From IMG/VR virus record IMGVR_UViG_3300021978_000001, positions 1 to 64,000 of that record: a DNA stretch of 64,000 nt, one strand, 5' to 3'. Below the pieces are notes generated by a model. It had not been told where the DNA came from, searched no databases, and was given only the letters and a program-made list of their open reading frames with translations. The translations under genes and the position numbers were made by a program. The DNA comes from a virus. Taxonomy: Duplodnaviria > Caudoviricetes. Position 1 is the stretch's first letter. Every line of letters starts with the position of its first letter. This document shows positions 37,489 through 42,618 of this stretch, in pieces.

Positions 37489-37943
37489 GCCTTGAAGGAC
37501 GATTGCTGTGTGTCCTCGAAGGCGTCGAGCACCCAGACGAGCAATATTGGCTTGAGTTGTGGTACCAGCCTCCCAATCGCTTCCATCTCCTGACCAGGGG
37601 CCATGAAGGGTATGAGGTGCTCTGGCGCTTCGATCTCGATCTGCACGTGTTCCTGTCCAACCTGGAGCGGGCACTCCTGACCATGCACGTGGGGTCGAGG
37701 TTCAAGTTTCTCTCAGCCCGAGAGCAGGTCCGTGTGAGCAAAAGAGACGCATGGCAGGTACAACGCGATACGTGTTGTGATGGTATCACCCTCCATGCCC
37801 GACGAGACCCGAGCTTTCCCTATCTCCTCTTCTTTGACTTCTACCAGAAGCGCACACGCGTTGATGTTGGCCTGGAGATGTACGTGAAGCGGGAAGCCTT
37901 GTGGGAGATGATCAACCACATCAATGGATTGGCGGGTACATAA
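37485..37943 (+). CDS. hypothetical protein
   Basis: 152-aa ORF, ATGA overlap. Confidence 0.55.
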   Translation: MSLEGRLLCVLEGVEHPDEQYWLELWYQPPNRFHLLTRGHEGYEVLWRFDLDLHVFLSNLERALLTMHVGSRFKFLSAREQVRVSKRDAWQVQRDTCCDGITLHARRDPSFPYLLFFDFYQKRTRVDVGLEMYVKREALWEMINHINGLAGT

Positions 37944-38010
37944 TGTTCTTGTAAGTGGTGGGGGTGGTAGCTTCGAGAGCATCCACCCCTTTACTTCGAG
38001 AGCAAACACC

Positions 38011-38394
38011 ATGAGTGACCTGAGCGATTATCTGGAAGCCGCGCTGCTCGATCACGCGTTCCGCAATACACCTTATAGTGCACCCGCGACGGTGTACCTG
38101 GCGCTCTACACGACAGATCCCGCAGATGATAACTCGGGCACTGAGGTCGCGGGCGCGGGGTATGCACGTCAAGCGGTGACCTTCGATCGTACCCTGAACA
38201 CGATCACGAACAACATCGCCGTGAGCTACACGGCGACGGGGGGCAACTACGGCACCGTGACACACATCGGTGTCCTCGATGCGCTCGCAGCGGGTAACCT
38301 GATGTTCCGCGCGGCCTTGACGACCCCCAAGACCATCGAGGATGGGGATACGTTGACGTTCGCGATCGGAGACATTGACTTCACGCTTGATTGA
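38011..38394 (+). CDS. phage tail/virion structural protein
   Basis: SDYLEAALLDH...VYLALYTTDP...GTEV...YARQAV: widespread phage tail-associated family. Confidence 0.75.
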   Translation: MSDLSDYLEAALLDHAFRNTPYSAPATVYLALYTTDPADDNSGTEVAGAGYARQAVTFDRTLNTITNNIAVSYTATGGNYGTVTHIGVLDALAAGNLMFRAALTTPKTIEDGDTLTFAIGDIDFTLD

Positions 38395-38425
38395 GCATCA
38401 AGCCCTGGATACACAAGGAACTGTC

Positions 38426-39514
38426 ATGAATAGAAGAGCACTCGCACAACGTGTCGCGTTTACCTATGGTTGCAACCGAGGGTTTTACGCGCCCATGCAA
38501 ACACGAGAAGCACACCTCATGGTGCTCTCGCGCATGGTGTTTGCCAAGGCCAAAGAACTCAAGGCGCTCGACTACACGATCGGCCTCGTAAGGCGTTACC
38601 CCGACAAGCTCGACAACAAGTATCCTGATATGCGCCCCAAGCTCATCGAGCTGCGTCAGGCTGTCCAGAACGGCTTCTCGATGAAGACCTTGCTCGACAA
38701 CCAGGAGATCTTGAGTCGCCTGGGATCACGCCTCTCGCGTGAGATTGTGGAGACCGATGGTGAGTTCGGGGAGTTCTTCCCCAAGCTCAAGAGCTTCCTT
38801 GGAGACTTCGAGGACAGTACCGAGGCGTACCTCAAGAGCTTGCGTGGTGATTACGAGCAGATGATCGCCAAGGCACTCGGGGTATCGGTTTCTGATCTCT
38901 TGCGTGGTGGGCGTATCCCGATGGATAAGATCGAAGACGCTTATCAAGTGATGTTCGATGACCTGGACGCGCACTTCAAGGACATCATGGCTACCATCAA
39001 GCGCGTGGGCGCAGAAGCAGGAGGGGGCTTCAAGATCAAGGGGCGCCTCAAGGCTCCTGGATCTGTGGCGGGAAAGATCCGCGAGCGCCTCGCACGTGGC
39101 GAGGCGACTGCGCTCGACTTCCTGGACTTCAGTGATCTCGTAGGAACACGCGTGATTGCGAAGGACCTCCAGGGTGTCCTCGCCGCCATGAGTCACATCG
39201 AAAAGACCTTCAAGGGGAAGGTCCTTCGCAAGCGAAACTACTACCTCGTGGCCAACAACCGCAACCCTTACCAGGGTGTCAACTACATCATCGCGCTCGG
39301 GCCATACATGGTCGAGCTTCAGGTGTCTGCGGAGCTGGACCGCATCGCGGCCAACCTCATGCACGATTTGACCTACTCTGATGAGAAGGCTTTCGTGAAG
39401 CTCAATGATGAGCAGAAATCCCTGATCGCGCTGGTGATTGATCTGTTGACGCAGCTCTCTTTCCGAGAATGGCAACAGATCATCTCACCCACGCTTGCCG
39501 AGTTCTCGGTCTAG
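38426..39514 (+). CDS. RelA/SpoT-like nucleotidyltransferase (small alarmone synthetase homolog) with N-terminal helical extension
   Basis: GRLKAPGSVAGK (Syn1) and SDLVGTRVI (Syn2) intact; YQGVNY (Syn3) and ELQVSA (Syn4) divergent; HDLTY. Confidence 0.78.
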   Translation: MNRRALAQRVAFTYGCNRGFYAPMQTREAHLMVLSRMVFAKAKELKALDYTIGLVRRYPDKLDNKYPDMRPKLIELRQAVQNGFSMKTLLDNQEILSRLGSRLSREIVETDGEFGEFFPKLKSFLGDFEDSTEAYLKSLRGDYEQMIAKALGVSVSDLLRGGRIPMDKIEDAYQVMFDDLDAHFKDIMATIKRVGAEAGGGFKIKGRLKAPGSVAGKIRERLARGEATALDFLDFSDLVGTRVIAKDLQGVLAAMSHIEKTFKGKVLRKRNYYLVANNRNPYQGVNYIIALGPYMVELQVSAELDRIAANLMHDLTYSDEKAFVKLNDEQKSLIALVIDLLTQLSFREWQQIISPTLAEFSV

Positions 39515-39720
39515 TCCTCGACCTCGACCACCATCACACCGCGCCTCGATCGCCCGACCCGGACCTTATCCCCGGGTCGGGTTTTTTCTGGGAACGCCTC
39601 TGCGTTGAAGCGCTCCTCTCCCTCCTCGAAACGCACGACCACGAAGGTCTCCCACTCGGTCTTCTCTTTCTCCACACGCACGACCTCTCCTGGTCGCATC
39701 TTCACTTCTTCGGCAGTCAT
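39511..39720 (-). CDS. small hypothetical protein
   Basis: 69 aa, AAGGAGG RBS, early promoter at 39783-39807. Confidence 0.6.
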   Translation of the reverse strand: MTAEEVKMRPGEVVRVEKEKTEWETFVVVRFEEGEERFNAEAFPEKTRPGDKVRVGRSRRGVMVVEVED

Positions 39721-40256: not shown

Positions 40257-41075
40257 TTACCTCTCTTTTTCGGCCACGAGTTCTTTCTCGTGGTGCTTGT
40301 TGAGGATCAGGTTGATGGTATCCACCAGCTCTTGATCCTTGAATGTGATGTGCATGTTTCCGTTCTTGTACCACTTGAACGCGAAGTAGTCTGACTCCCC
40401 CTCACCCTGGCACGAGCCATACCCGCCACGTTCCTTGCGTGCGGTCTTGATGGCTCCGATGAGTCCACCATAGCGTTCAGGCGCGGGCTTACCGTCCACC
40501 ACATGAAAGATGCGGTCGAGGTCGCGCACCTCTTCCTCATGCCAGTAGGAAATGCCCGAGGACTCCATCACTCCCGTGAGGATGATCTTGTTGCCAAACC
40601 CGAACCCTTCATTGGTGCGGTAGTTGCTGGACAACCCCTTGTAGCGGTCATACACGCTTTGCTCGAACATGTCACCTGCGCGCGCAGCGAGGTCGAGCAT
40701 GGTCGCGGTGATGTTTTCGAGGGTGACTTCGGGTGGCTCCCGGTCGATTTGTCGATAGAACGCATCGGAGGTCTTCGCGTTGAACGCATCCCCGAGAGGG
40801 GTCGCGTTGAGCAGGTTCCACCATACGCGCTTGTCCAGCTCTCTCCTGGCGCGGTCCCCGAAGGACGTGTAGAACGACTTGCCTCCCCCGATGTATTGGA
40901 GTGTATTCATCGAGAAGGTGGAGTGCGTCGAGGAGAACGTCGCTTTCTTGCACTCCTCGTTTGCTTTCTGCACGAGTTCGTGCGCCTCTTCGAGGTATTT
41001 GAGCGCGCGATCACGCGCCTCGACCACCTCACGGATCGTACTCTTGGGGACCAGCTCTGTATGTTCGATCTTCAC
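40257..41075 (-). CDS. DUF4942-like protein
   Basis: C-terminal YFAFKWYKNGNMHITFKDQELVDTINLIL characteristic of DUF4942. Confidence 0.72.
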   Translation of the reverse strand: MKIEHTELVPKSTIREVVEARDRALKYLEEAHELVQKANEECKKATFSSTHSTFSMNTLQYIGGGKSFYTSFGDRARRELDKRVWWNLLNATPLGDAFNAKTSDAFYRQIDREPPEVTLENITATMLDLAARAGDMFEQSVYDRYKGLSSNYRTNEGFGFGNKIILTGVMESSGISYWHEEEVRDLDRIFHVVDGKPAPERYGGLIGAIKTARKERGGYGSCQGEGESDYFAFKWYKNGNMHITFKDQELVDTINLILNKHHEKELVAEKER

Positions 41076-41828: not shown

Positions 41829-42545
41829 TCAAGGCACCGGATAATCCGGGTCATAGTACCCGAACGCCTTGACCTCGTGAATCTCTTGCTCGGGCCAACG
41901 CATCGCCGTCAAGGTGCCTCCTCTACAGCACGAGGTGTCGAGGCAGACGTGCCTGGGGTAGGGCGTCGGGTCATTCATCCAGTAATGTCCGAAGGCCACA
42001 AACACCCCGTCCTCACCGCCTTCCCAGTTCTCCCACCAGGAGAGCCGCTGTCGTTTGGCGTTCCGCAGCCCATAATAACACTCCTCTGGTGTGTCTCCTG
42101 GGTACGCGTGGACACAAACGAGGTTATGCGCGCGAAACTCGATCTTGTGCGGGAGCGTCTCCAGCAGCGCCTTTCCAATGCGCTCGCGTTCGTCGAGGTC
42201 TTTATAGCGCACGCTCATCTGCCGCGCGGTGATGCCGTACCCATGGACATCCACCTGTACCGGGTTGCCTTTCATCCACCGGAACAACTTGTTGTCATGG
42301 TTACCCATGCACCAGTAGAGGTCCCCGCGTTTCCATCGCGTGTAAACCCAATCAAAGACGTCCGCATTGAAGGGGCCACGGTCGCATAGATCCCCCAGGA
42401 ACACGAGCTTGCGTCCGTCCGGGTGTATGCCTTGACGGTCATATCCCAACAGCTCGACCAAAGACATCAATTCGTTGAAGCAGCCGTGAACATCACCGAT
42501 GATGTCCAGGGGTGTGGTCGTTTCTTCTACTTGTACGCGCATCAT
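41829..42545 (-). CDS. calcineurin-like metallophosphoesterase (PrpE/ApaH/Pnkp-phosphatase-like)
   Basis: IIGDVHG, GDLCDRGP, GNHD, FGHY, LDTSCCRGGTLTAMRWPE. Confidence 0.88.
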   Translation of the reverse strand: MMRVQVEETTTPLDIIGDVHGCFNELMSLVELLGYDRQGIHPDGRKLVFLGDLCDRGPFNADVFDWVYTRWKRGDLYWCMGNHDNKLFRWMKGNPVQVDVHGYGITARQMSVRYKDLDERERIGKALLETLPHKIEFRAHNLVCVHAYPGDTPEECYYGLRNAKRQRLSWWENWEGGEDGVFVAFGHYWMNDPTPYPRHVCLDTSCCRGGTLTAMRWPEQEIHEVKAFGYYDPDYPVP

Positions 42546-42618
42546 TCGTCTCTCTTGATTAATGCTCTTGTAAGAGTGGGGTTATGGTCTGTTCATGCCA
42601 CACTTCCAGGATACTGCA

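Follow-up and report, generated by a model that had tools for sequence, protein, structure and literature searches.

The gene at positions 38426-39514 (+ strand) of the virus record IMGVR_UViG_3300021978_000001 encodes a 362-aa protein, P0001, that, judging from its sequence, is most likely an active ATP-dependent 3'-pyrophosphokinase in the superfamily of RelA/SpoT homologs (RSH). The stretch analysed here (the window, 64,000 nucleotides) is the first 64 kb of this complete 437,490-bp record, which has terminal repeats. An active pyrophosphokinase is the most economical reading of a conserved catalytic set, a confidently predicted fold and conservation across the family of relatives. The features of the gene and its product are as follows:

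38426-39514, + strand: RSH gene, product P0001 (RelA/SpoT superfamily), 362 aa, stop codon TAG included in the coordinates; from open reading frame (ORF) translation and PF04607
38415-38419, + strand: Shine-Dalgarno sequence AAGGA, 6 nt ahead of ATG 38426, seen in the sequence
38426-38920, + strand: basic, all-helical N-terminal region (residues 1-165), family-specific, with the invariant D49 in a KAIDFTIGL-type motif
38921-39511, + strand: complete small alarmone synthetase (SAS) fold, the synthetase (SYNTH) domain (residues ~166-362), with a long C-terminal helix; from an AlphaFold2 (AF2) model, VIA-align and Foldseek
39044-39076, + strand: Syn1 RxKxxxSxxxK (R207, K209, S213, K217), intact; donor ATP triphosphate site, equivalent to FaRel2 R64, K66, S70 and K74
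39134-39151, + strand: Syn2 DxxGxR (D237, G240, R242), intact; D237 serves Mg2+ binding and catalysis, R242 donor-adenine stacking; equivalent to FaRel2 D90, G93 and R95 and to RelTt D272 and R277
39227-39238, + strand: R268-K269-R270-N271 in strand beta-3, with K269 and N271 family-invariant
39269-39283, + strand: Syn3/G-loop Y282-Q-G-V-N286, compared with YxSxH; Tyr retained, Ser replaced by Gly, His by Asn
39314-39331, + strand: Syn4 E297-L-Q299-V-S301-A302, compared with ExQxRT; catalytic Glu and Gln retained, basic residue and Thr gone
39362-39376, + strand: Syn5 H313-D-L-T-Y317, present, with the His family-invariant

The gene is contained in an open frame at 38375-39514 (+ strand), and ATG 38426 is likely to be its start because it is preceded at the proper distance by AAGGA and the preceding gene ends at 38394, leaving a 31-nt gap.

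P0001 has every donor, Mg2+ and catalytic residue named in the FaRel2 and RelTt structures, plus the G-loop tyrosine Y282. An earlier note on this DNA, made from the letters alone, had described Syn1 and Syn2 as intact and had read Syn3 as YQGVN and Syn4 as ELQVSA; a script check confirmed each of these readings, in a register fixed by the family profile (Syn3 is YRSLH in RelP, and Syn4 is EIQIRT in both RelP and RelQ). The Syn1 Arg, Lys, Ser and Lys residues hold the donor triphosphate, the Syn2 Asp holds Mg2+, and the adenine of the donor is stacked by the Arg residues of Syn2 and Syn1 (PMC11782079; bioRxiv 10.1101/670703). FaRel2 E145 and Q147 of Syn4 act in donor-adenine recognition and catalysis, and the G-loop Tyr (FaRel2 Y128) stacks the acceptor base and is the sole universally required Syn3 residue (PMC11782079). 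P0001 corresponds one-to-one with FaRel2 at R64, K66, S70, K74, D90, G93, R95, E145, Q147 and Y128. The suggestion that the acceptor-binding motifs had been rewired thus stands for the Syn3 Ser and His and the Syn4 Arg and Thr, which differ, but not for the Syn4 Glu and Gln, which are donor-side or catalytic, or for the Syn3 Tyr, all of which are retained. The Syn3 His and Syn4 Arg are taken here to lie on the acceptor side, as in the RelSeq and RelP structures.

The family consensus for Syn3 is YNA[IV][NH]Y, with His in about half of the members, and position 301 of Syn4 is Lys in 25 of the 27 other members, mostly followed by Thr (ExQxKT). As the Syn3 change is family-wide and Syn4 is near-canonical in most members, K301S/T302A is the sole change specific to the P0001 lineage. 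P0001 has also acquired additional basic residues close to the G-loop (R268, R270 and R279); the R268-N271 stretch sits where Rel enzymes have their RxKD motif.

Family membership and predicted fold

Over residues 206-320, P0001 scores 39.2 bits for PF04607 (RelA_SpoT), above the curated cut-off of 27 (the DNA itself scores 41.1 bits), and no other gene in the 437-kb genome matches PF04607. With this score and an SAS fold model that matches RelQ at Z 13.0, the earlier identification of a RelA/SpoT homolog is upheld. No named NCBIfam, PHROG or PADLOC family fits the protein (best PADLOC match: PDC-S33, E-value: 3.6e-4), and its 12.4 bits against NCBIfam NF053588 (GTPPhKinYjbM, the RelQ equivalog) fall below the cut-off of 320. 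No match was obtained with phmmer of P0001 alone against the PDB, with tblastn of P0001 and the relative P0008 against 50,697 GenBank phage records, or with pattern scans of IMG/VR for the family. A word-indexed search returned as sole relative a 96%-identical protein (P0002), the 15 substitutions of which all lie outside the motifs. When 1.8 billion representative sequences were scanned exhaustively with HMMER, 76 matched, and approximately 30 of these are full-length relatives at 25-35% identity, all of them metagenomic. From these comparisons, the P0001 family appears to be a distinct clade, found so far solely in uncultured huge phages. One 780-aa member (P0028) is fused to an N-terminal C39-like peptidase, and the next-nearest RSH proteins (P0031, P0042 and P0048) are multidomain, in the order cyclic nucleotide monophosphate (cNMP)-binding, RelA_SpoT and HD_4.

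Twenty-nine sequences were aligned (alignment A1), and the resulting profile set the motif register against RelP and RelQ (gYnAvnY corresponding to GYRSLH, ElQvkt to EIQIRT and sHdLiY to EHKIYYK). Ten positions are invariant (D49, K209, K217, D237, L238, K269, N271, E297, Q299 and H313) and R207, G240, Y282 and Y287 are nearly so; ten invariant positions at 25-35% identity argue for a conserved enzymatic function. Compared with known RSHs, the profile is closest to RelP/YwaC (E-value: 2.7e-8) and RelQ/YjbM (~5e-8), followed by RelA (4e-6), with weaker matches to Rel (5e-5), CapRel (1.5e-3) and FaRel2 (0.05).

The AF2 model of P0001, built on A1, has a mean predicted local distance difference test score (pLDDT) of 79 and a predicted template modelling score (pTM) of 0.76. 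Its SYNTH domain is a nucleotidyltransferase-like, five-stranded mixed sheet with flanking helices, and its last helix (residues 328-361) aligns to the SAS C-terminal helix. The best VIA-align matches are RelQ (5dec_B, Z 13.0, model residues 170-358 on chain residues 3-197, 180 residues) and RelP (6ewz_B, Z 12.5), with RelQ and RelP alignments covering 180-183 residues; these are followed by SaEAS, which makes both (p)ppApp and (p)ppGpp promiscuously (8vx3, Z 11.9), CapRel (11.6), Tas1 (8.8) and FaRel2 (7.0). Foldseek agrees with an SAS fold (E-value: ~5e-6). A confident model and SAS matches at Z 12-13 over ~180 residues indicate homology beyond chance.

The N-terminal region is common to all relatives. 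Its net charge is +6 in P0001 and +1 to +14 across the family, which has a median isoelectric point (pI) of 9.4 and carries most of its net charge in this region. Residues 1-200 gave no Pfam or PHROG match beyond noise; for the N-terminal region, a PDB profile search gave nothing below an E-value of 0.4, and the ESM Atlas gave only matches with template modelling (TM) scores below 0.35. Modelled alone, the region reaches only pLDDT 58 and pTM 0.39, and this poor fold suggests that it packs on the synthetase domain and is not an independent module. The CapRel and FaRel2 alignments begin at model residues 138-140, approximately 30 residues before that of RelQ (170). Two other identities for the region were considered. 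First, a degenerate HD hydrolase, as in RelA, was rejected: hhalign of the region against the small alarmone hydrolase (SAH) of the phage and against the SAH-like profile gave an E-value of 0.3, and Pfam found no HD_4 match anywhere in P0001. Second, an LAxxVA/RVAxxY motif is not supported as a general capsid-targeting signal, as it is not enriched at protein N-termini: among 505 ORFs of the genome, five motifs occur in residues 0-40 and five in residues 40-80. The RVAxxY helix is conserved at the family N-terminus and is internal in N-terminally extended members.

Relatives' loci and candidate acceptors

As an RSH pyrophosphokinase, P0001 would take the beta-gamma pyrophosphate from ATP and attach it to the 3'-OH of an acceptor, a purine nucleotide stacked on Y282, to give a (pp)pApp- or (pp)pGpp-like alarmone. 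An alarmone-type product is possible and is the one that we tentatively favour, ahead of tRNA or other RNA ends. The nearest relatives in both sequence and structure are RelP, RelQ and SaEAS, and a phosphorylated nucleotide acceptor fits a family that is near-canonical in this part of the site (ExQxKT, His in approximately half of the members and the invariant K269). The Ser to Gly, His to Asn and Lys/Arg-Thr to Ser-Ala changes might be offset in part by R268, R270 and R279, and the acceptor-side changes would probably shift the accepted nucleotide or its phosphorylation state. The alarmone would reprogramme or arrest host metabolism late in infection or, if P0001 were packaged, at the start of the next infection, and an SAH-type hydrolase would provide the opposing activity. 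Packaging is possible by analogy, given the late-operon placement of the gene, the RSH domains of phage polyvalent proteins and the MuF-Apk2 toxins.

Loci of relatives were collected with pattern scans, which yielded one contig of a metagenome-assembled genome and 13 metagenome contigs. Several share genes with the phage that carries the RSH gene (DNA polymerase A at 46% identity and three more proteins), and others bear rIIA, tRNAs, tmRNA or genes with PHROG matches only; this gene content suggests that related uncultured phages, huge or T4-like, are the carriers of the family. The gene upstream of the RSH relative is sigma-70-like in contigs L002 and L007, and elsewhere the relative lies near a DNA polymerase. 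The recurrent neighbour is a convergent gene directly downstream, which in 5 of 11 related loci encodes an SAH homologue (family A4). These genes and the SAH gene found elsewhere in the phage's own genome are:

L013:1715-2344, - strand: A4 SAH homologue, convergent to the RSH relative
L006:1258-1836, - strand: A4 SAH homologue, convergent to the RSH relative
L012:1229-1714, - strand: A4 SAH homologue, convergent to the RSH relative
L009:2244-2732, - strand: A4 SAH homologue, convergent to the RSH relative
L010:9005-9526, - strand: A4 SAH homologue, convergent to the RSH relative
Genome 151927-152478, - strand, outside the window: canonical SAH of the RSH phage (HD_4, 52.4 bits; motifs HDxxED and KLADRLSN)

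The A4 profile matches the Pseudomonas aeruginosa SAH structures 6z3n/6yvc with an E-value of 2e-8. L013 and L006 keep the HDxxED and KxADRxxN motifs, which L012, L009 and L010 have lost; as these last three lack the HD and ED catalytic residues and are nevertheless conserved, they are candidate pseudo-hydrolase regulators. A different convergent protein (A5), present in L007, L008 and L015, may be a further degenerate SAH relative (hhalign E-value: 0.0026, probability 12%). The window contains no A4 or A5 homologue, its 142-aa and 217-aa proteins show no similarity to the SAH-like partners, and the whole genome of the RSH phage contains no A4-family member. The earlier observation that no obvious antitoxin gene is co-oriented with the RSH gene holds within the window, but the wider family does have a partner in the form of the convergent SAH homologue of five relatives. 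The canonical SAH is embedded in a 33-gene minus-strand tRNA array. With tRNA-Tyr (151844-151926) directly adjoining its stop codon and tRNA-Phe immediately upstream, co-transcription with the tRNAs is probable, and the enzyme may have a role in counter-defence, acting on tRNA ends or on alarmones.

In the cultured jumbo phages Vibrio phage pv27 (L020:3026-4183) and BcepSauron (L021:3103-4284), an SAH of the same type is followed by a hypothetical protein of approximately 385-393 aa, alike in place and in length in the two phages. These proteins were rejected as RSH relatives (hhalign E-values: 0.28-0.36) and may be unrecognised SAH partners. The relative P0004 has a C-terminal extension of approximately 90 aa, and a few kb from its gene lie a tmRNA (L003:6601-6962 and L004:4522-4883, - strand; tag ANDSDYGDLAAA), tRNA-Pro and tRNA-Lys.

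A new substrate, as the earlier note had suggested along with a role in host takeover or counter-defence, would agree with the altered Syn3 and Syn4, but (pp)pGpp, (pp)pApp or tRNA would agree with them just as well. Several points weigh against an alarmone as the product. First, P0001 lacks both the Syn4 basic residue and the Syn3 His. Second, tRNA-modifying toxic SASs (toxSAS) differ from alarmone synthetases in a smaller positive patch at the acceptor site (PMC11782079). Third, a basic family with its charge concentrated N-terminally suits a nucleic-acid substrate. Fourth, the link to SAHs does not discriminate between the products because SAHs also reverse tRNA pyrophosphorylation (Kurata et al.), and the SAH partner is convergent and not operonic, is degenerate in three of five cases and is absent at the P0001 locus. 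Fifth, of 66 positions conserved in the family, P0001 departs at 21 (in 15 cases non-conservatively), with K301 and E308, which adjoin the active site, among them, so a loss or change of function in its lineage is possible.

Some of these points would be accounted for if P0001 were a pyrophosphokinase of tRNA or other RNA 3' ends, like the toxSAS CapRel, PhRel, PhRel2 and FaRel2, a reading that we consider rather unlikely. The basic N-terminal helices would hold the RNA, Y282 would stack the terminal adenine, and pyrophosphorylation of the 3'-CCA would stop translation; with the 33 tRNAs that it encodes and the SAH inside their array, the phage would rescue or shield translation of its own. 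All characterized stand-alone phage SASs (PhRel, PhRel2 and CapRel) inhibit translation by pyrophosphorylating tRNA (Kurata et al.; PMC7229694), and the structural overlap of P0001 with CapRel and FaRel2 reaches the position of the toxSAS tRNA-anchoring helices (PMC11782079). The high pI of the family and the charge of its N-terminal region fit such a substrate, and with neither the Syn4 basic residue nor the Syn3 His the positive patch on the acceptor side would be smaller. The SAH of the genome abuts tRNA-Tyr, some SAHs strip the pyrophosphate from tRNA (Kurata et al.), and tRNAs and tmRNA flank the RSH relative in L003 and L004; however, tRNA proximity is weak evidence as huge phages scatter tRNAs widely. 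In sequence and fold, P0001 also resembles RelP and RelQ more closely than it does CapRel and FaRel2, most members of the family retain the Syn4 basic residue and half retain the His, and P0001 itself has gained basic residues near the G-loop. Translation arrest during structural-gene expression looks counter-productive unless P0001 is packaged. A more elaborate scheme, which we regard as distinctly improbable, would have an RNA-end pyrophosphokinase that is made late and possibly delivered with the virion selectively disable host tRNAs; the 33-tRNA array and SAH would sustain phage translation, and the dead hydrolases would serve as regulators in relatives. If true, this would be a phage-side takeover use of CapRel-type immunity chemistry.

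A second alternative is about how P0001 is controlled and what it is used for, and it would fit either chemistry. P0001 might be a self-inhibited abortive or superinfection-exclusion effector in the style of a fused toxin-antitoxin, with the N-terminal region as an off-switch until a trigger such as a competing phage appears; the models are CapRel(SJ46) and Phrann gp29, with the regulatory domain here on the other side of the enzyme. The window holds no separate antitoxin, the conserved extra domain seems to pack on SYNTH (judging from the contrast between the whole model and the poorly folded N-terminal region alone), and Phrann gp29 is a precedent for exclusion by a prophage-borne toxSAS (PMC7229694). 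However, the N-terminal region is unlike the CapRel pseudo-zinc-finger or any known antitoxin, no trigger or sensor feature was identified, and a late structural operon is an unusual place for a defence gene; we consider this role improbable.

Less probable again is that P0001 is an inactive or repurposed pseudo-enzyme, that is, a structural, virion or nucleotide-binding protein with an RSH fold. The 21 departures from family-conserved positions listed above could be read in this way, five family members (P0004, P0012, P0015, P0017 and P0020) have lost the Syn2 Arg (to Met or Thr), the partners in relatives are often dead hydrolases, and an SAS of phage origin that is inactive has a precedent in the PhRel of phage Squirty (PMC7229694). 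In contrast, P0001 and its 96%-identical variant both keep every residue for donor binding, metal binding and catalysis, along with the G-loop Tyr.

Comparison with known RSH systems

The best profile and structural matches of P0001 are to the Firmicutes RelQ (YjbM/SasB) and RelP (YwaC/SasA) enzymes (PDB 5DEC, 5DED, 6EWZ and 6FGK), with which it has in common Syn1, Syn2, Syn5, the catalytic Glu and Gln, the G-loop Tyr and the long C-terminal helix. It differs from them in being phage-encoded, in its ~165-aa basic N-terminal region, in its low identity (12-16%), in a Syn3 without Ser and His and a Syn4 without Arg and Thr, and in failing the RelQ equivalog cut-off. Unlike the long RSHs (Rel/RelA/SpoT), it has no N-terminal HD or pseudo-HD domain and ends at residue 362 without the C-terminal TGS and ACT domains.

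Like the toxSAS CapRel (PDB 7ZTB, 9ERV), FaRel2 (8PU3), PhRel (Phrann gp29) and PhRel2, P0001 is a phage- or prophage-associated RSH synthetase, and it shares with them helices N-terminal to the core and a basic protein. Its matches to CapRel and FaRel2 are weaker, as given above, and its N-terminal region is much longer and unrelated in sequence. P0001 also lacks the C-terminal pseudo-zinc-finger of CapRel, the chains of which align over residues 12-242 of 343 only. toxSAS are neutralised by SAHs (Kurata et al.; PMC7229694); in contrast to toxSAS modules, in which synthetase and antitoxin genes are conserved as co-oriented cistrons, two or three per operon, the P0001 gene has no co-oriented antitoxin and the recurrent neighbour in its relatives is convergent.

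Prophage MuF-Apk2 (p)ppApp synthetases, whose genes lie in the region for head morphogenesis, have alarmone hydrolases encoded next to them (PMC11699363). P0001 resembles these systems (with the Aph1 hydrolase and Tis1-like immunity) in being an RSH synthetase encoded in a structural-gene region and in being coupled to a hydrolase at the family level, and it has the same fold as the type VI secretion system effector Tas1/Apk1 (PDB 6OX6, Z 8.8). It differs in that it has no MuF domain (no Pfam match), it is encoded in a tail and not a head module, its family's SAH-type (HD_4-like) partner is convergent and often dead, and no hydrolase gene adjoins its own. The best viral structural matches (Foldseek against BFVD) are RelA/SpoT domains of phage polyvalent proteins and stand-alone proteins such as one of Sinorhizobium phage phiN3 (E-values: 4e-8 to 1e-5). 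These matches, which indicate that RSH domains are a recurrent phage cargo, are unlike P0001 in that they are domains of 1000-1300-aa proteins or 250-aa single-domain proteins, none of which has the N-terminal region. Jimmy et al. found 13 SASs in phage genomes, all of the PhRel, PhRel2 and CapRel groups (PMC7229694), and jumbo-phage surveys, in the portion of the text available to us (PMC7824862), mention alarmone hydrolases and no synthetase.

RSH proteins are known as stress-signal synthetases, secreted toxins, and toxin-antitoxin and immune effectors, and the RSHs of phages investigated to date are either exclusion genes of prophages or toxins fused to MuF. What is new here is an uncharacterized RSH clade of huge phages, including a lytic-type 437-kb phage, that combines an N-terminal domain peculiar to it with an altered acceptor pocket and a recurrent partner derived from an SAH. 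If active, this clade would show that giant phages write, and do not just erase, alarmone-type or tRNA-end marks in infection, and it would be a natural variant series with which to map acceptor choice in RSH enzymes.

Operon and flanking features

The RSH gene is the last cistron of a tightly packed + strand baseplate/fibre series that comprises, in order, genes for a baseplate-J-like protein (31723-35124), a 568-aa protein, two small proteins and a Gp80 fibre-I-like protein. Past the intrinsic terminator that follows, genes on the opposite strand encode the 69-aa ORF, a 142-aa ORF, a DUF4942 protein, a 217-aa ORF and a calcineurin-like phosphoesterase. The features around the gene are:

37924-38394, + strand: Gp80 fibre-I-like gene, upstream of the RSH gene (PF23140, 144.7 bits; phrog_240)
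37941-37955, + strand: 15-nt TAATGTTCTTGTAAG element, ~55 nt ahead of the probable start of the Gp80-like gene
39552-39588, + strand: intrinsic terminator (11-bp GC-rich stem, 9-nt loop and U run), 38 nt past the RSH stop codon
39511-39720, - strand: acidic 69-aa ORF, convergent; strong Shine-Dalgarno sequence (AAGGAGG); 4-nt overlap with the RSH stop codon; contains the terminator
40257-41075, - strand: DUF4942 protein (153 bits), of a PHROG family linked to DNA methyltransferases
41829-42545, - strand: calcineurin-like/NinI-like phosphoesterase; like the DUF4942 gene, part of the convergent cluster that follows the RSH gene

The earlier note had placed the RSH gene next to a tail gene. This is correct for the present locus, where the neighbour is the PF23140 gene, but the position is not conserved in relatives. 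The Gp80-like gene probably begins at ATG 38011 (the Pfam match starts at residue 33 of the protein), and PHROGs names its family 'head protein', unlike the fibre label of Pfam. The RNA fold of the terminator has a predicted energy of -30.2 kcal/mol (z -3.58; none of 200 shuffles as stable), and a terminator scan caught part of it. The 69-aa ORF has no Pfam or PHROG match.

The 15-nt element, TAATG[T/C]TCTTGTAAG with a G-run after it, occurs in just three exact copies across the 437 kb, at 37941-37955 (+) and 42560-42574 (+) of the window and at 85691 (-) of the genome. The first two flank a 4.6-kb stretch that contains the Gp80-like and RSH genes together with the convergent cluster, and the element could serve the Gp80-like and RSH pair as a promoter or a regulatory site. 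The form TAAT-N3-CTTGTAAG was rejected as a class-wide late promoter on account of this low copy number, but may have a local regulatory role.

Read-through of the RSH stop codon TAG was also considered and rejected: the added tail would be rich in Ser, Thr and Arg, does not look like coding sequence and is antisense to the 69-aa ORF. As the large structural ORFs of the window are open under translation table 11, no recoding is evident in the window. A tRNA with a CTA anticodon (an amber suppressor, labelled Pyl by ARAGORN) is located at genome positions 120038-120110 (-), and two tandem copies of a CTA-anticodon tRNA are present on a contig of a relative (L010:1347-1501).

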